A DNA stretch of 64,000 nt from Nitrospiraceae bacterium (GTDB lineage Bacteria; Nitrospirota; Nitrospiria; Nitrospirales; Nitrospiraceae): positions 128,001 through 192,000 of the forward strand of contig JBFWWG010000004.1 in NCBI GenBank assembly GCA_050246315.1. The letters run 5' to 3'. Shown here one piece after another: positions 2,884 through 25,247 of the stretch. Each line of letters opens with the position of its first letter. The first letter of the stretch is position 1. A program made the translations under genes and the position numbers. Under the pieces are notes generated by a model. That model was not told where the DNA came from. It searched no databases and saw only the letters and a program-made list of their open reading frames with translations.

Positions 2884-4242
2884 CTAAGAAGACAGGCGTG
2901 GTTGTGTCGTGACCGCGCTCTTGGCCACAGCCGCCGCCATCGAGATACTGAACGCCCCTTCCCAATCCATGTCGGCTGGTACCAGGCGACGTGCCTCCAC
3001 GCTCTCCGTCCGAGACAGCGCCAACACGATGTTCTTGCCACCGAACCCGAAACTGTTGATGAGCGCCCGCTGGATGGCCGCCGGCCGCCCGTGCCCCGGA
3101 ACGTAATCCAAATCGCAATCGGGGTCCGGGTCGGTCAAATTCAGCGTCGGTGGCACAAACTGATGTTCCAATGACAGCACGGTGCTGATCACTTGAAAGG
3201 CGCCGCTCGCGGCAAACGCATGGCCCAAGGCACCCTTGAGGGAACTGACGGGCACCCGGTACGCATGCGCCCCCATTGCCTGCTTGATCGCCTTCGTCTC
3301 GATGGCGTCCAACTCCACGCTGCCGAGTCCACAGGCGTTGACATACTCCACTTCCTCCGGAAACCAGTGGGCGGCCATCAGCGCCCCCTCGATCGCACGC
3401 TGTTGCTCTCCTCCAGACTCCATAGGTTTGGCCATCGAGTGGGCGTCGCAGGTAAAGGCCCACCCTTCGAGCTCGGCATAAATATGTGCGCCTCGGCGGA
3501 CGGCATGCTCGTATTCCTCGAGTACCACGCAGCCGGCTCCCTCGCCCATGACGATGCCCGATCGGGTCCGATCGAATGGACGTGGCAGATTCCGCAACGA
3601 TCCCTGGCAATCCGGAGCCAGGGTCCGACCCGCTTCCATTGCGGACAGGATCGTCGGATGCAGCGGAGCTTCGGCTCCGCCTGCAACGACCAAATCGACG
3701 TTACGGGATCGAATCAGGTCGTAGGCCCGCCCGATGGCGTTCGCCGTTGAGGAACAGCCGATCGAATAGGTTTCGCACTCACCATGGACGCCGAGCGCAA
3801 TGGCCACTTCGGCGGAGACCGCGTTGGGGAAGGTGGCCGTCATGGTGAAGGGATGGAGATGTTGCTTGCGCAACATGCAATCATGCGCGGCGAAGGCTTC
3901 ACGAAGTCCGCCCACGGACGTGCCGAAGCTGATCGCCATACCGGAGCGGTCCTCGGCCTCCAGATCGAGGTCCGCGTCCCGCACGGCCATCAAGGCTGAC
4001 GCGACTGCGAAATGCGACACCCGGCCCATGCGTCTGGCTTGCTTGGGCGGAATGAAGTCCGTGGCATCAAAGTCCCGCACCTCGCCCGCTAAACAGGATT
4101 TGAACGAGGCGGTTTCGAAGGACTCGATCGGCCGGATTCCGGATTCCCCTCGGCAGAGCAAATGCCAAAACGTCCTGAGATCACAACCCAGTGGAGACAC
4201 GACACCCAACCCCGTAATCACAACGCGACGCGATAGGCTCAT
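2884..4242 (-). CDS. FabF/KAS-II-like beta-ketoacyl synthase with a non-canonical active site
   Basis: RRVVITGLGVVSPLG, RPFD..RSGIVMGEGAG and INSFGFGG motifs. Cys163 (IGC-SS) and His341 (KGALGH) are present, but the usual NAHGTST reads NACGLGS. RBS GAGGAGG. fabF symbol withheld because of the altered triad. Confidence 0.9.
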   Translation of the reverse strand: MSLSRRVVITGLGVVSPLGCDLRTFWHLLCRGESGIRPIESFETASFKSCLAGEVRDFDATDFIPPKQARRMGRVSHFAVASALMAVRDADLDLEAEDRSGMAISFGTSVGGLREAFAAHDCMLRKQHLHPFTMTATFPNAVSAEVAIALGVHGECETYSIGCSSTANAIGRAYDLIRSRNVDLVVAGGAEAPLHPTILSAMEAGRTLAPDCQGSLRNLPRPFDRTRSGIVMGEGAGCVVLEEYEHAVRRGAHIYAELEGWAFTCDAHSMAKPMESGGEQQRAIEGALMAAHWFPEEVEYVNACGLGSVELDAIETKAIKQAMGAHAYRVPVSSLKGALGHAFAASGAFQVISTVLSLEHQFVPPTLNLTDPDPDCDLDYVPGHGRPAAIQRALINSFGFGGKNIVLALSRTESVEARRLVPADMDWEGAFSISMAAAVAKSAVTTQPRLSS

Positions 4243-4364
4243 GGTTCATCCTCCTCGTGTGAGATCCATCTAAGGAAGGTCTGCTCAATTCAAGAATCTA
4301 GATGGCGACAAGACAAATTCCCTGTGTTTTGTGCACCGACCGATCGAAATCAGTATTTATTCAG

Positions 4365-4384
4365 GCCTTCCCTAACCGGCAGAT
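4365..4384. promoter_or_regulatory. Degenerate lux-box-like site upstream of the ketosynthase
   Basis: GCCTTCCCTAACCGGCAGAT fits NNCT-N12-AGNN and matches the 5758 box at 12/20 positions. Confidence 0.35.
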
Positions 4385-4398
4385 TCGTTTGGGCGTCC

Positions 4399-5679
4399 TC
4401 ACCTATGTTCCGTACCGTGCCAGACCGACATATGGTCCCGATGGGTTTCCCCCAACGCGTCCTGGGGATAAAACTTCTCGTAGAATCCAATGTCGACATG
4501 GTGGGCTTGAAACGCAATGACCGTCTTGAATGCATCCACATGAGCCGGGAAACGACCATAGGTACGATACACATACTCACAGAATCGAATCGCCGCTTCG
4601 ACCGCGCGCGCGCTATGCGGCTGGACTTCCTGCTCCTGCTTGCGGGGAATCCACGGCCAGGTGGCGGGATTAGGATAGATCCCGCTGGCGCCGAACTTGG
4701 AGTAGACGAGGTTCCGGACCGACGTCTCCATGGAAGGTACGAACGGCGGGCAGGGACCTTCCCAGATATCGGGGATGCCGACGGGGTTCGATCGGGCCCC
4801 AGGCACCAAGGACGGCGCAAACAGAAATCCAAGACCCGGATAGATTTGCGGTTCCCATCCAAGGAGATGCCGTCCACTCCCGACGCTCTGGATCCCGCCA
4901 CCCAGCCCGATGGCCTGCTCCATGAGGAACATGTTCTGGCACACCGCTCCTTGCTCCTGAAGCGCCGTGTCGCTGATCGCGGCATCGAGATCACGCAGTG
5001 TCATCATCCGCCGCGCGCCTGGGTCATCATGGAGGTATCCGCCTCGACTCTTTCGGAACTCATCCAGGCCGCACCCGGCCTGGCCGTTGTCGGTGTCCAC
5101 AATGAAATAGCCGTATTCCTCGCTGAGCAGTACCAGCAGGAGATTCAAATAGACCCGCGCCACCTCCGTCACGGGCACGATGAACTGCGAGCCCGGGCGG
5201 TTGGCATACCACTGGTTGAATGACAACATGAACGGCAATTGCCTGGGAATGTCCAAGCGGCTTGATTGGAGGCGCACCAGATTCGGACGGGCTCCGCTGT
5301 TCGGATGTGGCACGCCGGCTGCGTAAAATACCCCGTCGTCGTTCGACACAAAGAGCCTCGTCGTATTGGCCGCGCAGGCACTGGGGACGGTGCGTCCTCG
5401 AAACCCCATGATGGCCATGCCTTGCCCATCCTCATGGCCGGGCCGACGGACATACTGCATGTCGGCCAGGTGCGGACCGGTCTCCCCGACTCCGGCAAAG
5501 AGAAGGTAATGCAGCTCTTCAGCCGTCAGTGGGACCGGCTGCATCTCACTCCGATAGCGAAGCGGGCCAGCCGGCAGTTCCATCCCGCACCCAAAACGAC
5601 GGGTCCGTCGTTGCTGGAGCAAATCAACCAACGTTCTGAGTTCGGTGGATTGCGTCGCATGACAAGTCGAGGAAACCAT
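4399..5679 (-). CDS. Uncharacterised nitroreductase-fold (putative FMN-dependent) oxidoreductase
   Basis: N-terminal RRTRRF FMN-binding-like motif, RTVPSACA (cf. PSAG of nitroreductase/SagB-type enzymes) and C-terminal EQGAVCQNMFLMEQAIGLGG (cf. ExGxxxQNxxLxAxxxGLG). Start moved to ATG 5679, which follows RBS AAGGAGG. Confidence 0.7.
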   Translation of the reverse strand: MVSSTCHATQSTELRTLVDLLQQRRTRRFGCGMELPAGPLRYRSEMQPVPLTAEELHYLLFAGVGETGPHLADMQYVRRPGHEDGQGMAIMGFRGRTVPSACAANTTRLFVSNDDGVFYAAGVPHPNSGARPNLVRLQSSRLDIPRQLPFMLSFNQWYANRPGSQFIVPVTEVARVYLNLLLVLLSEEYGYFIVDTDNGQAGCGLDEFRKSRGGYLHDDPGARRMMTLRDLDAAISDTALQEQGAVCQNMFLMEQAIGLGGGIQSVGSGRHLLGWEPQIYPGLGFLFAPSLVPGARSNPVGIPDIWEGPCPPFVPSMETSVRNLVYSKFGASGIYPNPATWPWIPRKQEQEVQPHSARAVEAAIRFCEYVYRTYGRFPAHVDAFKTVIAFQAHHVDIGFYEKFYPQDALGETHRDHMSVWHGTEHR

Positions 5680-5729
5680 GGGTGCGCCTCCTTGGTGCAT
5701 GAGTCTTCTCCGCTCGCGCGGCTGGCGAG

Positions 5730-5777
5730 ACTCTACAAAGATGGTGCTATCGCTGTAACCTACCCACCCGGGTAGGT
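5730..5777 (-). promoter_or_regulatory. LuxR-activated promoter: 20-bp lux box plus -10 element
   Basis: ACCTACCC-ACCC-GGGTAGGT at 5758-5777 has perfect 8-bp arms and the ACCT-N12-AGGT format. On the minus strand TG-TAGAGT (-10 hexamer at 5730-5735) follows 22 nt later, close to the luxI promoter geometry. Confidence 0.8.
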
Positions 5778-5913
5778 CAGCGGAGTCTCATCCCGGGAAC
5801 GGAGAGGACATGAAGTAGATTGATGTGTGGAAGGCAGCCGAACATGGAGTGGGTTCGGAACAGCCCTGGGAACGGGATTCGACTGTGGTTTGAAAAACCT
5901 GAACGATGGCGGA

Positions 5914-6723
5914 CTAGGACGTCGCTTCTGAATGGCGGTTCGCACGGGCGGCAGGGAGGAGGAGTTCGAGGAGTTCATTGTGCTGGGACCGCCAGTTAGC
6001 GATAGCACTCCAGCGGTTTTCCACCCCCCCCAACTTCTCATAGATGTTCTTGAGGTGAAACTTCACGGTGTTCAGACTCACACTCAATATCACCGAGATT
6101 TCCCAGTTCGTTTTCCCTTCGGCAACCCAACGCATAATCTCCTCTTCGCGCTTGGTCAATTGCGCCTGAGGGGTCTGCGCCGGAGACTGATCCTGAGGGG
6201 TCAACGCGCGGAGATAGGCCAGATGGAAATGGGGGGAGAGGATTTGCATAATCGCACGTAGCTTGGGCATCGTCTTGTGGTCGAAATTGCTGAATGCAAA
6301 ATAGGTGCACGCGCCGAGCACGCCGCGAATCCCGACCGATAGACAGCTTTTGATGCCGAAATCCAGTTTGAGGCTCGTGACCTCTCTGGGCACCTCAATC
6401 GCGGGGGCATCTTCGCTGGTCACAAATCCGAACCGAGTGGTTTGCATCAGTTGGATTGCGGGGTCGCTCAGGAACCCACACGACGCATAGAGGTATGAAA
6501 ACTCATCGCCATAACTCGAATGGCCGATTTGCAATTCGCATTTTCTGACGTTGAATGCCCCACAGGCCGAAAACTCGTGCGGGATGATGGAGCCGACCGC
6601 CGCCGTCAAGGCGGACAGTCGTGACTGGGAATCCACCGATTGCGTCTGATACATGATGTCCCGCAGTTGCTGAAATTCCTTGCGGGATGGGTACGGGAGA
6701 GCCTCGGTGCCTCGAACAATCAC
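5914..6723 (-). CDS. LuxR-family regulator (autoinducer-binding-like domain + LuxR HTH), LuxR solo
   Basis: SYGDEFSYLYASCGFLSDP ligand-domain pattern and C-terminal LTKREEEIMRWVAEGKTNWEISVILSVSLNTVKFHLKNIYEKLG. GTG start after AGAGGA. No luxI in the window. Confidence 0.9.
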   Translation of the reverse strand: MIVRGTEALPYPSRKEFQQLRDIMYQTQSVDSQSRLSALTAAVGSIIPHEFSACGAFNVRKCELQIGHSSYGDEFSYLYASCGFLSDPAIQLMQTTRFGFVTSEDAPAIEVPREVTSLKLDFGIKSCLSVGIRGVLGACTYFAFSNFDHKTMPKLRAIMQILSPHFHLAYLRALTPQDQSPAQTPQAQLTKREEEIMRWVAEGKTNWEISVILSVSLNTVKFHLKNIYEKLGGVENRWSAIANWRSQHNELLELLLPAARANRHSEATS

Positions 6724-13805: not shown

Positions 13806-15491
13806 CTACGCCGTGTCCGCGGCGGACATTCGGCGCACCGTCAACACCGGCACTGACACCGATTGCCGGCAATTATCGCTCGTGAGAGAAAAGATCAGAT
13901 GGGCCACCTCATGAACGCGCCGCTGCCATGCCCGATAGGCGCTCAATTGCTCCGATGCCATGGCGGTCAGCGTCAACGCCTCCCCGTTGCAGGTTTCTCG
14001 CACGAAGGCCACTGTGGCAGAGCCGAAAGCCAAACCTTCGGCGGCGAGAGTGACGGCACGCCGGCGCAGGTCACGCATCTCCGCCTGAAGCGCTTGCACT
14101 GATGAGACCGGTGGAACCGAACGGCGACACAACCGCTCAAGCTCGTCCGCTTGCGCAACCAACCGCCGGAGCAATGGAGCAAGATACCGAAATACTGCTC
14201 GCTGCTCCTTCGCGTCCGGCGCCTCCCCTTGCGGTACCGGGCTAAGGCTCTCACGTCCAGTAAATTCCTGAAACCAATAGCGTCTCCACAGGGCGGCATA
14301 CCACTCACTTACAGCATCTGCTCGTCCCACCTTCAGTTTGTAAGCCCCAAGCCCGTCATCATCGAGAGCGGATTCATAGATCCGAACGCCGGTCGAATGA
14401 GCCGGCATCGGGCCGAGTCCCATGCCATACAGACAGAGCTCCGCAGCCTGCTCAGAAAGGATCCGATCCTTACAGGCATGATGCGCGCAGACCTGATCAA
14501 ATCCGCATGGAGCGCACCCAAGATCCGGCTGCACGACCCAATGGCCCGGCCCATAGGGGCCGGTCTCGCGAAAGTCCACGTGCCCCACAGACAGATCGAT
14601 GACCGGTGTGCCGGCCGAGACTGCCAGATGCATCGGCCCCGTATCGTTCGTCAGCAACAGCCGGCACTCCGCCAGCAGTGCCGTCAGGGACTTCACATCG
14701 GTGCGTCCCAACACATTCCGGAGAGGCGCGGCCCCCCCTGCATTTCGATAGGCGTTGATCGCCAGTTCCACCGCCTCCCGCTCGACCTCCGTACCGATCA
14801 TGACGAATCCGACCGTCGCGCGGCGGGCGATTGCGGCCATAGCCCGGCCAAACGAGTCGGGACGCCAAGCTTTGATGATCTCGCTTGCCCCGACCTGCAC
14901 GGCCATCCACCCCTCCGCCGGTCGTTGCCGGCCGAGGAGCGCCCGAGCCTCCTCGCGGGCCTTAGATGAAACGGGCATCCGCAATGGAGTAAAGGGACCG
15001 TGACCGCTGCCGCCGAGTGCATAGAGATCGACGAGATTGAACCGGTTCAACCGTCGATGCCGATGCAGATCCGTAAAGTAGGCCATCCAGGCATTCCGTA
15101 CAACCGTCGCCCCGTCGGTGGCACAGGTGACGCCGCGAATATCAGGTGCCCCGATATACGCAGCCAGCAACCCGCTTCGCCGGTTGAACGTGAGATTCAC
15201 GATCCGGTCATAACGCACTTCAGCCAATGGCCGAGCCCACTCCTTTAGCTCGCGATACAACGTGACCAGGTCCTTCGCCATTGCACGCCCGTTCTCGGTC
15301 AGGGCCCGGAAGTCGAGCGCATGGACCTGTCGTACATTTGGCAACAACGCGGCCACAGAGGCAAAACTCTGGTCCACGACCAGATCCACCGCCGCATCCG
15401 GCCATTCATGGCGAAGCCGCGCGATCAATGGGACCGACTGGACCAGATCGCCCATCCTGGTGATGTTCAGGATCAAGACCCGGCGGCTCAC
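13806..15491 (-). CDS. Glycosyltransferase family 9 (heptosyltransferase-like) with C-terminal extension
   Basis: ITRMGDLVQSVP and LLTNDTGPMHLA motifs. Confidence 0.88.
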   Translation of the reverse strand: MSRRVLILNITRMGDLVQSVPLIARLRHEWPDAAVDLVVDQSFASVAALLPNVRQVHALDFRALTENGRAMAKDLVTLYRELKEWARPLAEVRYDRIVNLTFNRRSGLLAAYIGAPDIRGVTCATDGATVVRNAWMAYFTDLHRHRRLNRFNLVDLYALGGSGHGPFTPLRMPVSSKAREEARALLGRQRPAEGWMAVQVGASEIIKAWRPDSFGRAMAAIARRATVGFVMIGTEVEREAVELAINAYRNAGGAAPLRNVLGRTDVKSLTALLAECRLLLTNDTGPMHLAVSAGTPVIDLSVGHVDFRETGPYGPGHWVVQPDLGCAPCGFDQVCAHHACKDRILSEQAAELCLYGMGLGPMPAHSTGVRIYESALDDDGLGAYKLKVGRADAVSEWYAALWRRYWFQEFTGRESLSPVPQGEAPDAKEQRAVFRYLAPLLRRLVAQADELERLCRRSVPPVSSVQALQAEMRDLRRRAVTLAAEGLAFGSATVAFVRETCNGEALTLTAMASEQLSAYRAWQRRVHEVAHLIFSLTSDNCRQSVSVPVLTVRRMSAADTA

Positions 15492-17305
15492 AGCAGATCC
15501 CTCATGTCCGAGCGATGCTCATCGAGCAGAAGGATCAACAGCTCTTCGCGGCCGAGGGTGGCCGTGGCTCCTTTCGCCTTGATCCTGGCCGCAAGATCTC
15601 GTAGTTCCACCCGCTCGGTGTCAGGCCCCTGCCGCAAGAGCGGGATCAACTCGGGAGTGTCCCGGCTCTGCTCCGCTAGGCGTCCGGCCTGCCGATCGCC
15701 GCGTAGAATCGCCCCGACCCGATCCGGCTCGCCCATGCCGATCCTCGCCAGCAGGGTCTTCATCCGATGCACATACGTATGTTCTCGCAAGGTTCGATCA
15801 TAGGCTTCCTGGGCCATCACCCGCCTGGCTTCCGGTTCCTGTCGCCATGTCTGGAGGTATCTCACAAGCCCATCCTCATCGGTCAAGGTCGCTATTTGCC
15901 CGGAGTCGAAGAGGTTCGGAAGCAACCTTCGTCGGTCCACCAGTTGAAAAGCGCGGCAGGCCGCCAACTCGAACGTGCGCGGGTTGACAAAGTCGCCCTC
16001 CGGATCGAACCCCGTTCCGACATGGGAGTGTAGGTTTAGATTAATCGCCGTGGCGTTGAAGATCTTCACGCAGGTCTCGGTATCGACCCGCGCTCCGCCC
16101 CGTTGAAGCGCCGGCTGTACCGCCGCCGCTCCCTCCCACTCATTGCCCCAGATCTTGAACGTCCATTCCGAGGAGGTCAGCCGGGGCAACAGCGCGCGGC
16201 GGTTCGCATAGCCGGCGCCGACAAAGGCGACGTCGGCCCCGAACTCGCGCCGCTCTGCCTCAGAGAGCTCCAACGGCCGGTGAACGGCCGGATCGGCCGC
16301 CATCGGCAGATACTCAATCTGCTTGGCACCGGCCCATCGCATCGCTTCATGGCAGCGGTCCTGCTGAATGACGAACCAGTAGTCGTAGCCGCCCGCCACC
16401 TGTTGCCAATAGGTCAGGTGGCGATAGTTCTCGACGAACCACATGCTCGTCAGAAACTTCTTGCGTCGCAGATGCTCCAACACCGGAAGCGTCAACGGCG
16501 CCTGAGCCAGGGCCAGGATGAGGTCCGGCGGATCTTCCGCAACGCGGGCCAGCGACCATTGGCTGAGCAGCTCCGCGAACTTAGCCTGGAGCAACTGGCG
16601 ATGCCGCCCGTCGGATAGTCCCGCCATCGCCTCATAGCTGCCGTGATGGAAACTGTGATCGATCCAGGTGACCCTGTGGCCGAGCTGTTTGAGCGCGGAA
16701 GCGGTATAGCGTGCGATGGGGAGCGACCCCCCGTAGATCGGACCCACCACCGCCACATGTAGCCGCCCCCCCATCTTCACCGCGAGGGCCTCCCTCAACG
16801 AGGTCTCGAGTGCGGCATAGGAGTCCGCGTGACAGTCGGCGGCCGGCGCATAGGTGAGCAGGCGAAGCGGCTGCGAGAAGGACGCGAGCGTCTGGGCGGC
16901 TTCTCCAGCGGGCCCAACAATCCATCGGACGAGACCGATCCAATCACCCAGATCGCGTGCACGGCATGCGTCATGAAGCTCCCTCAGGTCCGGCACGACC
17001 ACGGCAATTTGCACGCCGGTTCGCGAACGTTTGCACAGCGCCTCCACGTGATACAGGAGGCCGACGCCGAGGATGACCGCTATCTCGTTCGACTGCCAGA
17101 CCGCCAAATGACCTTCCGCCCAACGCTCCGCCTCCTGTCGGGGATCATAGGAGCTGTGGACCCAGCGGTCGCCGCACGTTGCCGTCGCCATGCCGTTGCG
17201 CGACTCAAGGATCTCCAGCACACCGCCGGATGACTCCCGGATCTGCACGGCCAGAATCGGATCGTTTTCAGCGATCCGCGCCACATTGGATTCGAAGACT
17301 GTCAT
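15488..17305 (-). CDS. Glycosyltransferase: Maf-like N-terminal segment + CgeB/Glyco_trans_1_2-type domain
   Basis: VHSSYDP..EA..W and ILGVGLLYHV (Maf N-terminal-like); DVAFVGAGYANR, INLNLH and NPRTFELAAC (CgeB-like). Confidence 0.8.
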   Translation of the reverse strand: MTVFESNVARIAENDPILAVQIRESSGGVLEILESRNGMATATCGDRWVHSSYDPRQEAERWAEGHLAVWQSNEIAVILGVGLLYHVEALCKRSRTGVQIAVVVPDLRELHDACRARDLGDWIGLVRWIVGPAGEAAQTLASFSQPLRLLTYAPAADCHADSYAALETSLREALAVKMGGRLHVAVVGPIYGGSLPIARYTASALKQLGHRVTWIDHSFHHGSYEAMAGLSDGRHRQLLQAKFAELLSQWSLARVAEDPPDLILALAQAPLTLPVLEHLRRKKFLTSMWFVENYRHLTYWQQVAGGYDYWFVIQQDRCHEAMRWAGAKQIEYLPMAADPAVHRPLELSEAERREFGADVAFVGAGYANRRALLPRLTSSEWTFKIWGNEWEGAAAVQPALQRGGARVDTETCVKIFNATAINLNLHSHVGTGFDPEGDFVNPRTFELAACRAFQLVDRRRLLPNLFDSGQIATLTDEDGLVRYLQTWRQEPEARRVMAQEAYDRTLREHTYVHRMKTLLARIGMGEPDRVGAILRGDRQAGRLAEQSRDTPELIPLLRQGPDTERVELRDLAARIKAKGATATLGREELLILLLDEHRSDMRDLL

Positions 17306-17308
17306 GTC

Positions 17309-18508
17309 TTACCGCTCGACACACAGCACGGGCCCGATCGAGGCCCAGATCGCCTCTCGCCGGCGCTCGGCGCCATCCGGATGGTGGAGCCGGCAATAGT
17401 AGGTGCCCCAGTCGTCGAACCGGCTTTTCCAAAGAGACCATTCGGGCGACGTTCCGGGGCAGGAACCCGACAGCAATAGTTCCACGCTCGACTCGACTGG
17501 CCAGTCCTGAGGTCTGCTTTGGCCAGTCGGCTCGTGTTGCCAGACCCAATGCCCTCGCCCGTACGGTCCCGTCTCGTGCACACGCGCCCGAGCGAAATAC
17601 CACCCCATCGCACGAAGTCCTAGGGCCGCCCCCAGATGGAGAGGTCCTGTATCGGCCCCGACGATCCAGTGACAGCGACTCAAGAGCGTGGCCAATTGCG
17701 CCACGGTCAATATTCCCGTTGAGTCCCAAAGGCGTCCGAGCAGCAACGGCGACAGCCTGTCTTGGATGGCGGCAGCCACCTCGGATTCCAGTCCTGTCCC
17801 AATGAGCACGACGTGAGCGAGTGAATGGGCCGTCAACAAGGTCTCGATCCAACGAGCCCATATCGACGGAGGCAGGCAGCGCTCGGAAGCTCCCGCTCCG
17901 ACCGCCACGGCGACCCACAGGCTGTCTCCCTTCCCGACCGGCGAACAGACGGCTGGAAGCTCGTCATCTGCCGCCTGAATGCGCGGCACGAACTCCGGCG
18001 GGCGAACCCCACAGAGCCCGCAAAACGCATCCGACAGATGGACGCGATCGTCCGTCCGACGGCTGGCCACGTTGCGAAGATAAGCAGCCCAAGCGGACAA
18101 TGACACACCTAGCGGACCATCCGATCCCGGTCCGACGACCTGAGCCGCCAGCAGGTGCGCGGCATAAATCGCTCGCGGATGCTGATTCAGGTTGAAAGCC
18201 AGCTCGTACGTGCCGGCGCCCAACTCATTCAGATAGTGCGTAGCCTCCCGGCAGATCTGCTGACGCCGACCGTGAGCCGACTCCACCCAGGCCCTCCATT
18301 GGGCGCCCTGCCATTCGAGGACCCGCTGGAGATGGGGAAACAATCGCGCGACCGGAGCCAGAGGCGCCGCACACAAGAGATCGAGCGTGAGCCTTGGTCG
18401 TAACTGCGTCAGGGATTCAATAGCCGGAAGTGTCTGAACTAAGTCTCCAAGTCGGGCCAATTGGATCAGCACCGCCTTTGAGAAGGGTTCTTGTACTGTT
18501 TCGCTCAT
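17309..18508 (-). CDS. Glycosyltransferase family 9
   Basis: QLARLGDLVQTLP, VGADTGPLHLGAALG and HETGPYG; paralogue of 13806-15491. Confidence 0.88.
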   Translation of the reverse strand: MSETVQEPFSKAVLIQLARLGDLVQTLPAIESLTQLRPRLTLDLLCAAPLAPVARLFPHLQRVLEWQGAQWRAWVESAHGRRQQICREATHYLNELGAGTYELAFNLNQHPRAIYAAHLLAAQVVGPGSDGPLGVSLSAWAAYLRNVASRRTDDRVHLSDAFCGLCGVRPPEFVPRIQAADDELPAVCSPVGKGDSLWVAVAVGAGASERCLPPSIWARWIETLLTAHSLAHVVLIGTGLESEVAAAIQDRLSPLLLGRLWDSTGILTVAQLATLLSRCHWIVGADTGPLHLGAALGLRAMGWYFARARVHETGPYGRGHWVWQHEPTGQSRPQDWPVESSVELLLSGSCPGTSPEWSLWKSRFDDWGTYYCRLHHPDGAERRREAIWASIGPVLCVER

Positions 18509-21500
18509 GCCACAAGCGGTAGGCTGCCGGCTGCCGATAGGCCTTTCGCGAGATCATCCAGGCCCTCGAAGCCGGGATTGAGCACGCGGATCGTGTCGTA
18601 CTCTTTGCGCGCGGCCTCGACCCGACCCAGCCGCAGCAACGTGCCGGCAGAGGCAAACCGAGCAGACAAGTCACTGGGATTACGGGCGATGTACCGTTCC
18701 AGATCGTCCGACAATGGCTCCCATCGTCCGAGCGAGACGCCGACCCGAAGGAGCCAATGGAGAACCTCCTGATCGTCCGGATACTCGACCGACAGGTGCC
18801 GGCAGATATGCCAGGCTTTCTCTAACTGATTCTGCCCGACGACCGCCATACCCATCCCCAATTGAGATCGCTTGGCGTCGGCGCCGAGGCGGAATGCCCG
18901 CTCAAATTGCTTCTCCGCCTCGGCGAACTCTTGCCGCTGCATCGAGAGCACCGCCTGCATCAACCATCCCTCGGCATGATTAGGCATGAGTCCCAGCAGC
19001 GCGGATACATGCTCCTCGGCCTTTGCCACCGCGTCCTCTTCAAGTGCCATCCTGGCCAATGAGCAGTGCGCCTCCGCATCGTCCACGACCATGAGCACTC
19101 GCTCCCAAAAGAGACCGGAGAGGTCACGGGCGCCGACGATCCTGCAGACCATGGCGGCCCAACGGAGCACCCACTCGTCGTCAGGCCACTCTTGCACCCT
19201 GGCCAACAGGGATCGAAGACCCTCCCGCTCCTGCCGTTGCGCCAACCGTTGCGCCTCCGCAACCAGCTCCCAGCGCCTGCGTTCATTCGTATCGGTCAGA
19301 GGATCAAGCCTGGTCCGCATGATTTCGCCGTCCGCTGTTTGCCGGAACACCAGCCCATCCTCGACGTAGGCGATGTCTTCGTCGGGAATCCACCAGTGCT
19401 GCCCCCAGCGCTCAAGCAGACGCTTGGCGTTCTTGGCATCGTGGGCCTTTCGGCCGACACTCTGGCTTTCAAGATGGTACAGAACGCTCTTCGGCTGATA
19501 GACAACCCGCCAACCCCGCTCGCGGATCTTCAAGCAGAGATCCACGTCTTCAAAACTGTTGAGATAGCCCTCGTCGAATCCGCCCGCCGCCTCGAAGACT
19601 TCACGTCGAATCAACGTGCAGGCGGCCGTCACACACTGAAACTCCCGCCGCCGGTTCACGACCGGATGATCGCCCGGCAATTGCCGGTAAATGTGATAGG
19701 GCGTGAACATCACTTTTGAGAACACCACACCGGCATGTTGGATCGTGCCATCCTCGTACAACAACTTGCTGCCTACGACCGCCACCTCGGCATGGGTCTC
19801 CACTTCGTCCACCAAGGCTCGGAGCCAGCCTTCCAACGGAATCGTGTCGTTGTTCAAGAAGACGAGATACCGTCCGCGTGCCGTGGCGGCCCCGCGGTTA
19901 CAACTCTTGGCGAACCCACTGTTCGCATCATTCCGCACGATCTGGACATCGCCGCCGAGCGAGGTAAGAAACTCCTGAGTCTCGTCCGTGGAGCCGTCAT
20001 CTACGACGATCACTTCATACTCGACCCCGTGAGTGACCGCCGCCAAGGCCGAGAGGCATTGCCTGGTCAAGTTGACCTGGTTGAACACCGGCATAATGAT
20101 GGAAACATCATGACGATTTGCCGAAGAGGTCATCGGCGGCGGCTGTACTTGCAGAGCCTGCTGTATGGGCTCTTTCTGTTGCGAACCCAGACGGACTCCC
20201 TCCTGAAACGCCGAGGTGAGCAGGGCCTGGTAAAGGGGATAGAGCACGGTCCTGGCGTAGTAGTGGTCGAAGCCCATGTCCTGAATACGAAGAGCAGCCA
20301 TGCGCGAGACCGTCGGCTTTTCGACTTCCTTGAGCACCGAGAGGAGCAAGGCTATCCGATCTCGGCTGGAGGTGGAGGACCCCGAGTCTCGCGGCACTTC
20401 ATCGAGCCTCAACATCAGTTCGTTCAGAACCGGATGCTTGCCGGCCAACAACACCGCCATCTGTCCGGCCTTTCGCTGGCGCTCAACGAAGCTCTCCGGC
20501 GTGATCTCATGATGGTGTCTGGTCACCGCTAGTGGATTGAAATGAATCTGCATGCCTTGGTTCGCCAAACGATAGCCCAACTCTACATCGTCGAATGCGG
20601 GATACAGGAAATCCGGATCGAAGAGGGTCGTCTGCCGGTGCAAGAATGATCGTTTGAGGGAAAGATTGCTGGTGTAGAACAGGCGGAAATCCACCTTCCC
20701 GTTCTTGACCAGATGGTAGGCAAATTGCTGACCTCCTTCCGGCGAGACGATGAACTTCATGAAGGGCGTGACCGTAATCTCAGGAGACCAATCGATGAAC
20801 CCCAGCATGGCCTCCGACTCCACCGGATGTTTCCGATGAAATGTCGCATGAGCCTCCAGGAAGCCAGGCTCGGGGATCATGTCGTCACCAGTAATGACGA
20901 CGACGTGCCCCTGAGCGGCGCGGATGCCCTCATTGCGGGCGGCATTGGCGCCTCCATGCGGCCGAGTGACGACGCGGAGGGCAAACGGCAGCTTCATGCA
21001 ACGGATCATGGAGGCGGTGTCGTCCGTGGACCCGTCGTCGACCAGCAGCACCTCGAACCGATCAGGGGAGAACGTCTGTGAAGCAAACCCCAAGAGCGTC
21101 TTCCTGACGATCACCTGTCGATTATAGGTTGGAATGACGACGCTTAGTTCGGGAGCGGAGCGGAGTTGCTCGTGATCCAAATCGGAACTGGCCCGCGCAT
21201 TCCATGCTTCCGTCCGAGAGATCCCGGCAATACCGGATTGCGCAGCTTCCGCGTCACGGATCGCTTCGACAACGGGGTCCAACCGATAGGCCCACCGAAG
21301 TACCTGATCGTAATGTTGTGCCGTCACGTGCTCGACAAGGGGCGATGGCCCTTCCCCGAGCCGTCGCTGCAGGATCGCAAACCCCTCCTCCAGGAACTGT
21401 TTCCCCGTGATCAGATCCTCGCGGGACAATTGCGGCGTGTGCATCGGCACCTGATGCCCCCCGTAGTCGCCCCACCGCATCGAGTCGATCCAGCCCTTTC

Positions 21501-22695
21501 GGAGCGCCTCTTCGTAGAGCGGAGTGCCAGGATAGGGTGTAATAATCGTCACGCCGATCGTATCGGGCTGATACCGTTGGATCAGGTCGTAGGTGGCGAC
21601 AATGGATTCGCGCGTTTCTTTAGGCAGCCCCACGATCAACAGGAAATGCAGGCGAATCCCCAGACGCCGGGCCTTGTCGCGCACGTGGGCCAATCGCGGC
21701 ACGGTGAGTCCCTTCTTGCCCTCCCGGTGATGCATCACGGCTTCGTCGCCGGTTTCCACGCCGATCAGGATGCCGACGCAGCCTGCGGCGCGCATCTTTT
21801 CCATCAGCCCGTCGCTGAGGCAATCCACACGGGTTTCGCACATCCAATCCAACGTCCAACCCGCCCTCACGATCAGATCGCAGAGACGCTCAATCCGTTC
21901 CTGGTTGAGTGTGAAGGTCGCGTCGCGGAAATAGAGTTTGGTGATGCCCTGCCGCTCGACGATTTCCTTGATCTCGGCTGCGATGCGTTCGGGACTTTGC
22001 GACCGCCACTTCACACCCTCGACCAGCGGATAGGGACAGAAATAGCCGCAGGGATAGGGACAGCCCCGGCTCGTCTGGAGCGTGGCAACCGGCGATCCAA
22101 GCAGTGGATAGACGTACTGCTGGTTTGGCAGCAGATCCCTCGCAGGAAAGGGAAGGCGATTCAAATCAGTAACCGGCTCGCCTTCTTCGAAACGGAGGCT
22201 CGTGCTATCCGAGCCGTCGTCCTGCCCCAGCCAGGCGCACCCTTTCCTCGACCGCCCTGCGGCCAAGTCCACGATCGACAGGTCCGCTTCTCCGTGGATC
22301 ACGAGATCGGCACCGCTCCGCCCGAGCAATGCCTCAAGCGTGCGGTGGTCGCGAATCAAGGTCTTGGCAAACACCTTGGCATCGGGATGCCGTCGGCGCA
22401 GCTCAGCGAGGAACGCCGCATCGGCATCAAGAGTCGGCAAGGCGACGGTGGCCAACAGGACATCCCATGTCCGGCCCTCCAGCCGCCGATAGACGCCGGC
22501 CTCGTCCAGGCGCAGTGGATCAGCGTCGATTAGTTCTACCGATTCCCCGACTTGGCGCAAGGAGGATGCCATCGTCGCCAGATCAAGCGGCGGCAACAAC
22601 AGGTGGTCGCCGCCATCGAACCCCAATCCACCAGCCATACTCCGGCTGACGGGCCGACGCGCCAAGGACGGGCTGTTGATCAACACGATGTGCAT
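18505..22695 (-). CDS. Fusion: B12-binding radical SAM + GT2 + GT2 + TPR repeats (1396 aa)
   Basis: PPLDLA B12-domain start, RGCPYPCGYFC and TPYPGTPLY. Two GT2 domains (SVVIPTYNR..VDDGSTD; SIIMPVFN..VDDGSTD..FLNND..FEDVDLC). C-terminal TPR-like helices. Confidence 0.9.
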   Translation of the reverse strand: MHIVLINSPSLARRPVSRSMAGGLGFDGGDHLLLPPLDLATMASSLRQVGESVELIDADPLRLDEAGVYRRLEGRTWDVLLATVALPTLDADAAFLAELRRRHPDAKVFAKTLIRDHRTLEALLGRSGADLVIHGEADLSIVDLAAGRSRKGCAWLGQDDGSDSTSLRFEEGEPVTDLNRLPFPARDLLPNQQYVYPLLGSPVATLQTSRGCPYPCGYFCPYPLVEGVKWRSQSPERIAAEIKEIVERQGITKLYFRDATFTLNQERIERLCDLIVRAGWTLDWMCETRVDCLSDGLMEKMRAAGCVGILIGVETGDEAVMHHREGKKGLTVPRLAHVRDKARRLGIRLHFLLIVGLPKETRESIVATYDLIQRYQPDTIGVTIITPYPGTPLYEEALRKGWIDSMRWGDYGGHQVPMHTPQLSREDLITGKQFLEEGFAILQRRLGEGPSPLVEHVTAQHYDQVLRWAYRLDPVVEAIRDAEAAQSGIAGISRTEAWNARASSDLDHEQLRSAPELSVVIPTYNRQVIVRKTLLGFASQTFSPDRFEVLLVDDGSTDDTASMIRCMKLPFALRVVTRPHGGANAARNEGIRAAQGHVVVITGDDMIPEPGFLEAHATFHRKHPVESEAMLGFIDWSPEITVTPFMKFIVSPEGGQQFAYHLVKNGKVDFRLFYTSNLSLKRSFLHRQTTLFDPDFLYPAFDDVELGYRLANQGMQIHFNPLAVTRHHHEITPESFVERQRKAGQMAVLLAGKHPVLNELMLRLDEVPRDSGSSTSSRDRIALLLSVLKEVEKPTVSRMAALRIQDMGFDHYYARTVLYPLYQALLTSAFQEGVRLGSQQKEPIQQALQVQPPPMTSSANRHDVSIIMPVFNQVNLTRQCLSALAAVTHGVEYEVIVVDDGSTDETQEFLTSLGGDVQIVRNDANSGFAKSCNRGAATARGRYLVFLNNDTIPLEGWLRALVDEVETHAEVAVVGSKLLYEDGTIQHAGVVFSKVMFTPYHIYRQLPGDHPVVNRRREFQCVTAACTLIRREVFEAAGGFDEGYLNSFEDVDLCLKIRERGWRVVYQPKSVLYHLESQSVGRKAHDAKNAKRLLERWGQHWWIPDEDIAYVEDGLVFRQTADGEIMRTRLDPLTDTNERRRWELVAEAQRLAQRQEREGLRSLLARVQEWPDDEWVLRWAAMVCRIVGARDLSGLFWERVLMVVDDAEAHCSLARMALEEDAVAKAEEHVSALLGLMPNHAEGWLMQAVLSMQRQEFAEAEKQFERAFRLGADAKRSQLGMGMAVVGQNQLEKAWHICRHLSVEYPDDQEVLHWLLRVGVSLGRWEPLSDDLERYIARNPSDLSARFASAGTLLRLGRVEAARKEYDTIRVLNPGFEGLDDLAKGLSAAGSLPLVA

Positions 22696-22854
22696 GAGGC
22701 CTCCATACCACGCTTGCTAAATCCGGCTCCCCTCAGATTGTTCTTGCCAGTCGGATCAAGACATCCAGTGATCATTTTATCTTTCATACCAACTTTCAAT
22801 TGATCAGTTGATCAGGCCGCATCTCGATAGTTTTCGCCAGTCAAAGAGCAGCCT

Positions 22855-24180
22855 TCACGAGCTCGTTCTCTCGGGCGACAGACCACCCAGCGTAACCAGT
22901 TGGGATTCAGGCCCGCCCTGATGGGCAAGAGATACGGCCTTGTTCAGCCACTGATAATCGACGTGCTTCACCTTGGCTTCGTTGGGCGTACGGCAGGAGC
23001 CGTTGTAGGGATCCACCATGATCAACCCTTGCAGCTCTAATTCGGCCGCCATGCCACTGCCAGGAGTAGGCGTGAAAAAGCTCGTGCTCAGGTGATCCGG
23101 CTTGATTTTCCAGACCATACGCACGGTGTCCGCAGTTTCGGATCGGCTCTCGCCCGGCGCGCCGAACATGATATTGGCCCAGACCTTGACACCGTTCTCC
23201 TTGCAGATGACTGCCGCCTTCAGATTCTCCTCGACCGTTGTTTCCTTCTCAAACAGGTCGAGGATTCTCTGACTGCCGCTCTCAAACCCGATCATCGCCC
23301 AGGCCAGACCGGTCTCGGCCATCTGGGCGACCACATCCGGATAGCGGCAGATCAGATCGGCCCGCATCTGGCAGATATAGGGTTCGGTGAATCCGGCAGC
23401 CCGGTACTGGCGGCAGAATTCGCGGGTCCAGCGGTGGTTGATGAAGAACAGATCATCGTGGGCCATCCAACTGCGAAAGTGAAAGCGATGCTTGAGCTCG
23501 CGCAGCTCACTAATGACGTTTGCCTGGCTGCGCATTTTTACCCGATTGCCAAAGACGGCGCGCTCGGCAGGCTGGCAGAAATTGCACTTGAAGGGGCAGC
23601 CTCGTCCGGCGTTCGTCGTGACGAACGGCGTGGGTAGCCGCGGGACCATGGGAGTCTGAAGTTCCCCCGTGATGTCGAAGAGATCACGGTCCACCCAGGG
23701 GATCTCATCCAGCACCGGCGGTTCGCCGACAATAACCCGGTCGACTGACTCGCCCCGCTCCAGTGTTGCGAGCAACTTGGGAAAACTGATTTCCCCTTCT
23801 TGTGTGATGATGTGATCGATCAATCGATTCGACGACACCTGTTGGAATTGGACCGTCGCATGGACCCCCCCGATCACGACGACGGCATCCTCGTGCTCCT
23901 CCTTGATAATCCGGATCGCCCGCACGGCGTCGGGATAGTGTAGGCTCCAGGAGGTGACGCCCCAGACTCTCGTCATCCTCCTCGCCACCTCCTCTCGAAA
24001 CTGTCCCCAGCCGCCGAGAGTGCGGAGGTCGATCAGGTCGACGGTATGGCCATGAGCCTTGACGGCTGCGCTAAGCGATGCCAGGCCATGGTCGATAAAA
24101 TTCGCCTCAATTGTCGGCTTCTTCTTGAAGCTGTCAAATCCCGGGAGCGCAACTCCAGGGAAGATCAGTGTGACGTGCAT
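22855..24180 (-). CDS. B12-binding radical SAM protein (class B methyltransferase-like)
   Basis: IGGVHAT, EGE, RGCPFKCNFC, GFESGSQRIL and TPTPGS motifs. Start at ATG 24180. Confidence 0.9.
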   Translation of the reverse strand: MHVTLIFPGVALPGFDSFKKKPTIEANFIDHGLASLSAAVKAHGHTVDLIDLRTLGGWGQFREEVARRMTRVWGVTSWSLHYPDAVRAIRIIKEEHEDAVVVIGGVHATVQFQQVSSNRLIDHIITQEGEISFPKLLATLERGESVDRVIVGEPPVLDEIPWVDRDLFDITGELQTPMVPRLPTPFVTTNAGRGCPFKCNFCQPAERAVFGNRVKMRSQANVISELRELKHRFHFRSWMAHDDLFFINHRWTREFCRQYRAAGFTEPYICQMRADLICRYPDVVAQMAETGLAWAMIGFESGSQRILDLFEKETTVEENLKAAVICKENGVKVWANIMFGAPGESRSETADTVRMVWKIKPDHLSTSFFTPTPGSGMAAELELQGLIMVDPYNGSCRTPNEAKVKHVDYQWLNKAVSLAHQGGPESQLVTLGGLSPERTSS

Positions 24181-25247
24181 GATTGGAGTCCTCGCTGCCG
24201 AACCGAACGAAGCAGTGAAGCCAGCCGGCCTGCCTCGTGGTACCACTGGAGTGTGGCGGCCAGGCCACGGCGGAGCGACCATCGGCCGTAGAACCCGATC
24301 TCCCGCTTGAGTTTGTCATTGTCATAGAGACGGTGACAGCGGTCCGCCTCGCCCATCAACAGATAGGCAAAATCTGGCGCAACCGGCGCATGTGCCGAGT
24401 CGTCCGACAGCCCGGCCAAACGGGTGGCCAGCAGATCTCGCTGGCCCAGCAAGGCAGTGAGGTGATCGAGGTACTCTTCAACGGAAACCGGTGCGTCACC
24501 CGTCAGGTTATATAACCCGGTCAGTCGTGCCTCGACTGATCTCCAGACGCCCTCTACCAGATCGTCCACATAGAGCGGCTGGAAACGCCGGTGCCTGAGT
24601 CGAGGCCAGATCGGGTGGAAGGAGGTCACGCCCAACAGCGTCATCAAGGATGATTCCAACATCCATGCGCTGCCGGGCCCATAGATATTGCCGATTCTCA
24701 AGACGAGAGCCTCCCGCCCAGGTTGCTTTCCCCAGACGGTGACCAAATCTTCGGCTGCCTGTTTCGATCGCCCGTAGGCCGACACTGGACGACAGGGGAC
24801 TTCCTCCTTGAGCGGACCCTGTTGATCGGAGGTCAAGCCTTGCGCTTCGATGCTGCTCGCATAGACGAAATACGGCACACCGAGCGCCGTGGCGAGATCG
24901 AGCGCCCGCTGCGACCCATTCACATTGCTAGTCTGGAGCGTCGAAGCATGCAAGGCGGTCTCGGCCGCAAAGTGCACCATGAAATCCGGCCGGCCGAGCT
25001 TGGCCAGGTGGGCTGTCTTGGATGGATCGATTGGATCAATCGGATCATCCGGACTCCCGAGATCGCAGGAAACGATCAGCGCCCCTCGGGATGACAGATC
25101 TCTGGCCGATGGTGTCTCGGTCCGTCTGGCCAACACGGTCACGCGAGAACCGGCGTCCAACAACTTGCGAGCCAGGTGCGAGCCCAAGAATCCCGTGCCG
25201 CCCGTCAGAAGGACATTCCATGGTTTCTGTCGCCGGATTGGCTCCAT
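24165..25247 (-). CDS. NAD-dependent epimerase/dehydratase (extended SDR)
   Basis: TGGTGFLG, YGRSK (YxxxK) and LRIGNIYGP. Confidence 0.9.
   Translation of the reverse strand: MEPIRRQKPWNVLLTGGTGFLGSHLARKLLDAGSRVTVLARRTETPSARDLSSRGALIVSCDLGSPDDPIDPIDPSKTAHLAKLGRPDFMVHFAAETALHASTLQTSNVNGSQRALDLATALGVPYFVYASSIEAQGLTSDQQGPLKEEVPCRPVSAYGRSKQAAEDLVTVWGKQPGREALVLRIGNIYGPGSAWMLESSLMTLLGVTSFHPIWPRLRHRRFQPLYVDDLVEGVWRSVEARLTGLYNLTGDAPVSVEEYLDHLTALLGQRDLLATRLAGLSDDSAHAPVAPDFAYLLMGEADRCHRLYDNDKLKREIGFYGRWSLRRGLAATLQWYHEAGRLASLLRSVRQRGLQSCTSH

Follow-up and report, generated by a model that had tools for sequence, protein, structure and literature searches.

A KAS-II-like ketosynthase with a Cys-Cys-His active site in a LuxR-linked gene module of Nitrospiraceae

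The ketosynthase gene and its active site

We analyzed a ketosynthase (KS) gene and its surroundings within a 64-kb stretch of DNA, referred to here as the window, from a Nitrospiraceae bacterium (GenBank assembly GCA_050246315.1, contig JBFWWG010000004.1, positions 128,001 to 192,000); the assembly spans 4.39 Mb and is 100% complete. The KS coding sequence lies on the minus strand (2884..4242), encodes 452 amino acids with no internal stops, and is preceded by the ribosome-binding site GAGGAGG (4250..4256, minus strand), 7 nt 5′ of the ATG. Further 5′ on the same strand come an open reading frame (ORF) of 433 amino acids, whose product we call the flavoprotein on the basis of its predicted fold, and then a gene for a LuxR-family regulator, with motAB, a PilZ gene, and flagellar genes beyond them. 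A conserved palindrome lies between the LuxR and flavoprotein genes.

Both Pfam domains of a ketosynthase were detected in the KS protein (PF00109, 144 bits; PF02801, 113.5 bits; cut-off 20.8, passed by both), and residues 5 to 411 aligned with an E-value of 8e-98 to FabF of Synechocystis (1e5m), the best match among solved structures. Identity to FabFs, the β-ketoacyl-acyl carrier protein synthases II (KAS II), was 40 to 44% across about 410 residues, that is, over the full length. The best NCBIfam models were all KAS II or KAS I models, no FabH family was among the 21 NCBIfam matches, and similarity to thiolase was marginal (TIGR01930, 30 bits versus a cut-off of 240.55). Against the FabF equivalog model TIGR03150, the protein scored 417.9 bits, below the cut-off of 493.75.

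The original prediction, made from the sequence of the window, had read the active site as Cys-Cys-His in place of Cys-His-His, and each residue that it named was found in its place. In the alignment with 1e5m, the FabF motif INAHGTST stands opposite VNACGLGS of the KS, with Cys304 at the position of FabF His303; its codon is tgt (3331..3333, minus strand; context gcc tgt gga ctc ggc agc). The nucleophile Cys163 is also encoded by tgt (3754..3756, minus strand). The segment from Lys336 to His341, within SSLKGALGH, holds the retained lysine and the second catalytic histidine (3220..3237, minus strand), and the GFGG gating loop (residues 399–402; 3037..3048, minus strand) is followed by Lys403-Asn404. 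A cysteine codon (TGY) and a histidine codon (CAY) are two base changes apart, which, together with the conservation described below, bears out the view that a single-base error is unlikely. The predicted C-terminal tail past the FabF core is also present (residues 413–452; 2887..3006, minus strand). It is weakly conserved; across the clade defined below it is commonly 25 to 47 amino acids long, with a majority fraction of 0.25 versus 0.81 for the core among 112 full-length members.

Homologs were taken as the best 120 listed from 5.8 billion proteins. They share 52 to 96% identity with the KS, with one protein standing at 36%, and nearly all come from Nitrospira or other Nitrospiraceae where a source was named. 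Residues were counted over a MAFFT alignment of 121 rows, consisting of the 120 homologs and the query. Cys304 is present in 118 rows, Cys163 in 120, Lys336 in 118, and His341 in 119; the rows without Cys304 are a fragment-like sequence (P0110), a long-branch sequence with serine at this position (P0120), and the 36% outlier (P0122). Conservation on this scale places the substitution far beyond chance or sequencing error. Among 33 related DNA loci, 30 use TGC for Cys304 and 3 use TGT, a synonymous change with retention of the residue that indicates purifying selection.

A maximum-likelihood tree of 72 rows, reported as 25 of the listed homolog-search proteins and 47 FabF-like sequences (every second of 92, including the two other KSs of the genome), split the 23 Cys rows and P0120 from all 47 His rows, with an SH-like approximate likelihood ratio test (SH-aLRT) value of 99 and a branch length of 0.66. 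By these sequence comparisons, the Cys304 ketosynthases are a monophyletic clade in which the cysteine is a fixed trait. A KS phylogeny and conservation of the NACG motif in a clade had been proposed as checks on the original prediction, and both turned out in its favor; the clade conservation and the mixed use of TGC and TGT rule out that the substitution is unique to this genome or under relaxed selection. A second Cys subclade lies outside Nitrospira (P0116–P0121, including a Sulfurirhabdus protein); searches for its locus gave none in genome contigs and, in metagenome contigs, only FabFs of 39% identity.

We next set 23 rows of the clade against 91 FabF-like rows; P0120, P0122, and the KS on contig C3 of this genome were excluded. 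At 15 diagnostic positions, one residue prevails in 90% or more of the clade rows and a different one in 80% or more of the FabFs. In FabF numbering, they include H303C, T305L, S306G, F202M, H268S, L342F, and E349Q. His303 is present in all 91 FabFs and Thr305 in 90 of them, and leucine occupies position 305 in 23 of 23 clade rows. Thr307, which had been counted as lost together with Thr305, is mostly retained (T in 95 and S in 8 of the 121 rows), so that the claimed loss of both threonines stands for the first and fails for the second. Clade and FabFs have 42 positions in common at 95% or more, including C163, K336, H341, G399-F400-G401-G402, N404, and D266. The available part of PMC7138838 describes Cys163, His303, His340, and Phe400 of FabF as catalytic, the GFGG loop with Asn404 and Asp265 as a gate, and Phe202 as the gate of the acyl pocket. 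Several of the changed positions are such known active-site, gate, or pocket positions, and the division between shared and changed positions suggests that the acyl-loading half of the enzyme has been kept and that the malonyl/decarboxylation side and the pocket have been rebuilt.

The genome has three KS genes, on contigs C16 and C3 and at 2884-4242. The KS on C16 is a canonical fabF with the motif INAHGTST and stands directly after an acyl carrier protein (ACP) gene (acpP-fabF). The carrier-protein family PF00550 has two matches genome-wide, on C16 and C3, each beside another KS, and this whole-genome search placed no ACP or fab genes near the KS at 2884-4242. Because a canonical acpP-fabF is present on C16 and no ACP is local, the conclusion that the Cys304 KS is not the housekeeping elongating enzyme is supported; the original prediction had drawn the same conclusion, had noted the missing ACP, and had pointed to a canonical fabF elsewhere in the genome as a check. 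The KS on C3 (L002, G000:C3:314624-318367; 451 amino acids) reads INAHATST, has GFGS replacing GFGG, and sits on a long branch (1.29). It adjoins its own ACP gene (G000:C3:315377-315577) and also a 439-amino acid ORF.

The LuxR-flavoprotein-ketosynthase module

The flavoprotein gene (4399..5679, minus strand) and the KS gene form, in this order, a two-gene unit. Read from the ATG at 5679-5677, behind AAGGAGG at 5693-5687, the flavoprotein has 426 amino acids; the maximal ORF reaches 5700 (P0002, 433 amino acids). The true start is probably Met8, since the conserved AAGGAGG precedes that ATG and the Atlas record begins there. Of 151 genomes sampled from the family, 38, this genome included, carry an ortholog of the KS (at least 65% identity). 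Gene order was compared in 25 Nitrospiraceae loci, made up of 20 of the ortholog-bearing loci with 8-kb flanks and five from a related-locus search: the LuxR, flavoprotein, and KS genes stand in identical order on one strand in all 25, and in at least six the stop of the flavoprotein gene overlaps the KS start by 4 nt. The same triad was present in 10 of 10 more Nitrospira loci reached via the flavoprotein, four of which are re-finds. PAS/GAF and mot neighbors are common to only part of the 25 loci. In the window, flavoprotein and KS are separated by a spacer of 156 nt (4243..4398, minus strand). The same length was seen in L004, a spacer of 55 nt in L005 and L130 of the same genus, and the 4-nt overlap in several other genera; the extra 100 nt or so in the window are relatively AT-rich.

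Six runs on record as RNA contain part of the window, and the contigs of four of them, from three studies, were compared. Contigs X15 (3524-5698), X16 (3959-4840), and X17 (4064-4879), from two studies, span the flavoprotein-KS spacer at 99% identity or more and are compatible with co-transcription of the two genes. Stretches such as approximately 5715-5852 in X15 are uncovered, and contig ends at 5676-5714 are shared by four runs; these ends and gaps hint weakly, at best, that transcription begins close to the flavoprotein gene, and X15 carries adapter there. At window position 5885, the X16 contig has A and the window G, which is probably strain variation.

The intergenic palindrome, CCTACCC-N4-GGGTAGG (5759..5776, no strand assigned), is a candidate LuxR operator resembling a lux box. 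On the minus strand it extends to 20 bp, ACCTACCC-GGGT-GGGTAGGT. Alignment of nine LuxR-flavoprotein intergenic regions gave a mean column identity of 45%, within which the island CCTACCC....GGGTAGG(T) and the ribosome-binding site are invariant. All 31 distinct module loci examined have the palindrome 51 to 140 nt 5′ of the flavoprotein start, with invariant arms and four variable central bases. In a search without mismatches, 63 of 232 loci had a single copy each, all 63 being module loci, and the other 169 had none; the palindrome of the window is the sole match there at up to two mismatches and the sole match in the genome at up to one. Such a pattern is typical of sites bound by a dimeric helix-turn-helix protein. 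We propose the LuxR protein as the binder, because it is the only conserved regulator of the module. A consensus promoter scan between the palindrome and the flavoprotein start codon found no sigma-70-like site.

The LuxR-family regulator (5914..6723, minus strand; 269 amino acids) combines a divergent autoinducer-binding domain (PF03472, Autoind_bind, 24.3 bits versus a cut-off of 23) with a GerE helix-turn-helix (PF00196, 67.6 bits). Its C-terminal domain aligns well to CviR, SdiA, RhlR, and LasR, and its N-terminal domain barely does. We judged the ligand motif from an alignment of 14 module LuxRs with the canonical LuxR beside LuxI in another genome (G011), which shows the W-x3-Y-x8-DP spacing. 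This spacing is defined by W57/Y61/D70/P71 of TraR and belongs to the WYDPWG motif of N-acyl homoserine lactone (AHL) sensors, which in TraR also includes W85 and G113 (PMC4414361, available part). In the 14 module LuxRs, Y79, D87, and P88 are invariant, the position of W57 holds F, H, L, or C, and that of W85 holds G, N, or T. The accessible text of a 2015 survey (PMC4338825) lists the LuxR solo D8PAV3 of N. defluvii as F-Y-D-P-gap-C, in agreement with our alignment, and PluR and PauR, the sensors of pyrones and dialkylresorcinols, likewise depart from the WYDPWG motif (PMC4414361, available part).

A search for LuxI (PF00765) gave no match in this complete genome, and the identical search was positive in 51 of 151 family genomes. 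LuxI was found in 4 of 38 module genomes (G011, G051, G126, and a fragment in G110) versus 47 of the 113 genomes without the module, a comparison that is descriptive, as related genomes are not independent. In G011 and G051, luxI and the module are no more than a few kb apart; in G011 a canonical luxR-luxI pair directly follows the KS. The canonical luxR-luxI pair beside the module in these two genomes makes up a small quorum-sensing island (L142:9304-11156 in G011; G051:C5:175642-176160). Lineage I genomes are described in the part of PMC12342949 available to us as having LuxR homologs without LuxI, with the question of whether the AHLs of others are sensed.

The 433-amino acid flavoprotein sequence matched no Pfam family at E ≤ 0.001. 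An AlphaFold model was built from 22 orthologs; on comparison with 48,161 chains by VIA-align, all 50 listed matches belonged to the nitroreductase superfamily, led by 3hj9_B (Z 10.5, root-mean-square deviation 2.9, 163 aligned) and 8cqs_A (Z 10.4), and the azoline oxidases BmdC (8.4), ThcOx (8.2), and McbC (8.0) were in the list. Foldseek against the Protein Data Bank (PDB) returned the same nitroreductase proteins as its top five, weakly (E 0.08–0.17) and with none at E ≤ 0.001; when PDB sequences were searched with a flavoprotein profile, the one match was weak, to an unrelated transmembrane protein (E 0.014). On the strength of the structural model, the partner protein is probably a nitroreductase-fold oxidoreductase, which would bind flavin mononucleotide (FMN). 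A motif near the N terminus, RRTRRF, is conserved among the orthologs and reads RRSRRF in the wider family. A predicted KS-flavoprotein complex scored 0.00, a value that counts neither for nor against binding. Single members of the wider family carry an additional fused domain, either an oxygenase domain of the MpaB/Lcp type or one resembling acetoacetate decarboxylase (P0268, 863 amino acids; P0337, 783 amino acids), and the family also occurs in Nitrososphaeria archaea (L156, L189, L211, L215).

Beyond the three genes, neighbors were scanned in 12 loci. Cytochrome P450 genes adjoin the module in six of them (L006:7350-8630, L020:3899-5839, L132:4902-6608, L134:10787-12367, L136:4887-6437, and L137:6743-8056), placed divergently between LuxR and flavoprotein or directly after the KS; there is none at the module of the window. 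NarL-type regulators and HisKA_3 kinases are frequent near the module in the same 12 loci. In the window, the gene after the KS (2-2707), open at the window edge, specifies a sensor that combines numerous PAS domains with a GAF domain. This sensor is 81 to 94% conserved within the genus only, and other genera have different PAS sensors or NarL/HisKA_3 genes there. Further along the window, behind flagellin and fliD, a run of glycosyltransferase genes (13806-25247; two GT9, one GT1-like) also holds a 1396-amino acid radical SAM/two GT2/TPR fusion, a B12-binding radical SAM gene, and a gene for an NAD-dependent epimerase/dehydratase, and looks like a flagellin-glycosylation island.

A possible signal pathway and its alternatives

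In the reading that we favor, with the balance for and against it about even, the module is a LuxR-controlled pathway for a fatty-acyl-derived small molecule that is not an AHL and is most likely the ligand of that same LuxR, and the KS is a neofunctionalized descendant of FabF. The three genes and the palindrome would then make a self-contained positive-feedback circuit like that of luxR, the lux box, and luxI. Catalysis would start with acyl transfer from a housekeeping acyl-ACP or acyl-coenzyme A onto Cys163, as expected because the cysteine, the GFGG/Phe400 gate, Asn404, Asp266, Lys336, and the second histidine are kept. In KAS I and in animal fatty acid synthase, both histidines are needed for decarboxylation, and mutating either is reported to abolish condensation. 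For this reason, and because the KS0 domains of polyketide synthases (PKSs) that lack HGTGT are non-elongating, normal malonyl decarboxylation is not expected at the second step. Cys304 could instead serve as a thiolase-like base or as a second acyl site, and the outcome would be either a non-decarboxylative (head-to-head) Claisen condensation or acyl transfer; the invariance of the cysteine suggests a new role for the residue. As an idea, we considered that Cys163 and Cys304 might form a redox disulfide. Finally, the flavoprotein would oxidize (desaturate or aromatize) the intermediate or product, as DarA does in aromatizing the DarB product or azoline oxidases do in dehydrogenating rings. 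Each step of catalysis, the FMN cofactor, the contact between LuxR and palindrome, and the nature of the ligand are inferred.

Known systems offer partial parallels. With FabF and KAS II, the KS shares the fold, both Pfam domains, Cys163, Lys336, the second histidine, GFGG/Phe400, Asn404, and Asp266; it differs in its 15 fixed changes, its tail of 25 to 47 amino acids, the absence of acpP or fab neighbors, and its separate long branch. Judged on sequence, it is a KAS-II enzyme by descent, yet it falls outside FabF in its triad, its equivalog score, and its genomic association. The available parts of PMC4414361 and PMC7154725 describe PpyS/PluR and DarAB/PauR as systems in which KSs make non-AHL signals from fatty-acyl units that are read by LuxR-type receptors, and in the dialkylresorcinol pathway the "aromatase" DarA oxidizes the product of DarB (PMC7154725). 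These Photorhabdus systems, PpyS/PluR for photopyrones and DarAB(C)/PauR for dialkylresorcinols, resemble the module in having a KS, an oxidoreductase (in the dialkylresorcinol pathway), and a LuxR with an altered WYDPWG motif. They differ in that PpyS and DarB are FabH-like KAS III enzymes with Cys-His-Asn, whereas the present KS is KAS-II-like with Cys-Cys-His; here, moreover, the partner has a predicted nitroreductase fold, a DarC-like ACP is missing, the organism belongs to the Nitrospirota, and product and sensing are putative. Under the favored reading, the module would be a functional analog of PpyS/PluR and DarAB/PauR on a KAS-II scaffold and not a member of their family.

LuxI/LuxR/lux-box systems are matched in the LuxR-family receptor gene alongside and in the lux-box-sized palindrome (18-bp core, 20 bp extended) before a biosynthetic operon. 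The differences are that the genome has no LuxI, that the KS and the flavoprotein are the synthase candidates, and that the receptor lacks W57 and W85. A bolder proposal, which we put forward tentatively and consider rather doubtful, is that flavoprotein and KS together synthesize non-AHL autoinducers of a new class, which the adjacent LuxR reads via CCTACCC-N4-GGGTAGG, and that the KAS-II scaffold has acquired convergent thiolase-like chemistry or double acylation. Biosynthetic thiolase, of the same superfamily, has a Cys-His-Cys site in which the second cysteine is the base for non-decarboxylative Claisen condensation. The active sites are alike in combining a histidine with two cysteines; they differ in that the base cysteine of thiolase is carried by another active-site loop than FabF His303.

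Several observations weigh against a signal pathway of this kind. The base cysteine of thiolase is not at the structural position of His303, which makes the analogy chemical and not structural. Adjacency and the operator mark the operon as a target of the regulator, not its product as the ligand, and in Photorhabdus the gene beside pluR is presumably the target operon and not the synthase. The Autoind_bind match of the LuxR is barely above its cut-off. For the flavoprotein, PF00881 reached 17.6 bits (E 0.0046), below the cut-off of 23.5, and the AlphaFold model is of middling quality (pLDDT 67.4, pTM 0.72). The flavoprotein family is widespread: 1375 representatives reach E ≤ 1e-3, and its members come from many phyla, archaea among them. 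None of 70 non-Nitrospira loci has a KS within 5 kb, and 14 sampled distant loci have no constant neighbor. Its occurrence elsewhere without a KS implies that the flavoprotein has a function of its own, independent of the KS, and the same absence of a KS near non-Nitrospira relatives makes the pairing an invention of the Nitrospira module. With regard to transcription, RNA-library contigs can include DNA and need not represent single transcripts. Lastly, the KS passes the looser NCBIfam subfamily model NF005589 (414 versus a cut-off of 387), a score compatible with ordinary elongation.

That the KS is indeed a specialized FabF paralog, elongating by decarboxylative condensation with malonyl-ACP and tolerating Cys304, would fit this score, the full-length identity to FabFs, and the retention of the gate, the lysine, and the second histidine. 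We nevertheless consider it very unlikely: the score falls under the FabF equivalog cut-off, the invariant His303 and the near-invariant Thr305 of FabF are both replaced, and the gene has no ACP of its own, unlike the two other KS genes of the genome. The loss of condensation when either histidine is mutated in KAS I or animal fatty acid synthase speaks against it as well, and a LuxR and a flavoprotein as linked neighbors have no part to play in fatty acid synthesis. Still harder to credit is a dead structural partner, that is, a subunit like a chain-length factor (CLF) or a pseudoenzyme that pairs with another KS or scaffolds the flavoprotein, although His-to-Cys changes are reported for the inactive amxFabFmut of an anammox KS/CLF-like heterodimer in the available part of bioRxiv 10.64898/2026.05.19.726425. 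The anammox CLF-like proteins also lose the nucleophilic cysteine, which is retained here in 120 of 121 rows, and the core is strongly conserved (0.81). In KS/CLF heterodimers, whether of type II PKSs or anammox FabF2/FabFmut, a second KS is adjacent; no second KS gene was found at the locus in the window or in the 25 related loci, and the heterodimer suggested in the original prediction therefore finds no counterpart there.

We regard it as unlikely, though less so, that the KS is an acyl holder comparable to KS0 domains, which merely loads, presents, and passes on a chain on Cys163 without forming a C-C bond and leaves the chemistry to the flavoprotein and, elsewhere, to neighboring P450s as well. 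In trans-acyltransferase PKSs, KS0 domains lacking HGTGT do not elongate (PMC5772238, available part); they accept acyl chains, and the KS0 of oocydin biosynthesis is required for the flavin oxygenase (PMC10952193, available part). As in these domains, including those of the MupA/OocM flavin-oxygenase α-hydroxylation bimodule, the histidine of HGT(G/S)T is lost here, the cysteine is kept, and the putative acyl acceptor stands beside a predicted flavoenzyme (PMC5772238, PMC10952193). The transacylation apparatus is retained with His303 and Thr305 gone, and P450 genes adjoin the module in half of the 12 scanned loci. KS0s, however, are megasynthase domains with flanking ACPs, whereas the present KS is free-standing and of type II, in a module without a carrier protein or downstream acceptor. 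A histidine that was merely lost should have given way to varied residues, whereas the invariant cysteine suggests use, and Lys336 and His341 are kept.

In a different account, the LuxR solo would sense an exogenous compound, such as the AHLs of neighbors, and induce enzymes that modify or quench it, with the KS as an acyltransferase or amidase. The genome does have a LuxR without a LuxI, a luxI/luxR pair lies directly beside the module in two genomes (G011, G051), and an operator that is unique in the genome is what a substrate-induced operon would show; whether LuxI-less lineage I LuxRs hear the AHLs of others is a published question (PMC12342949, available part). That the module occurs mostly in LuxI-less genomes, which nonetheless share habitats with AHL producers, is neutral. 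Loss of both tryptophans of the AHL motif argues against an AHL ligand. No KAS-II enzyme is known to us to function as an AHL amidase, and we consider this account quite improbable.

Novelty and implications for Nitrospira

A literature search found no description of a Cys-Cys-His KS triad or of the module; the supplementary tables of PMC4338825 and PMC12342949 may list the neighbors of the regulator or palindromes. What we rate as new is a ketosynthase active-site variant within a new LuxR-linked module. The original prediction did not take in the main context of the gene, namely its flavoprotein partner, the regulator of LuxR type, and the palindrome.

Nitrospira are key nitrite oxidizers and comammox organisms in soils, waters, and wastewater treatment. 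According to the available part of PMC12342949, their signaling is known only via LuxI/LuxR and AHLs, and genomes with LuxR but without LuxI are unexplained. The LuxR-operator-flavoprotein-KS module is a concrete candidate signal pathway for such orphan LuxR receptors. For the enzyme family, a KAS-II protein with a selected cysteine replacing the decarboxylation histidine is a natural experiment on the role of the first histidine, and the Cys304 KS may be a new route to C-C or C-X bonds on the thiolase fold. Should the neighboring LuxR indeed sense an autoinducer made by the flavoprotein-KS pair, the main nitrite oxidizers of soils and wastewater plants would have a second quorum-sensing language, present largely in genomes that have no LuxI.

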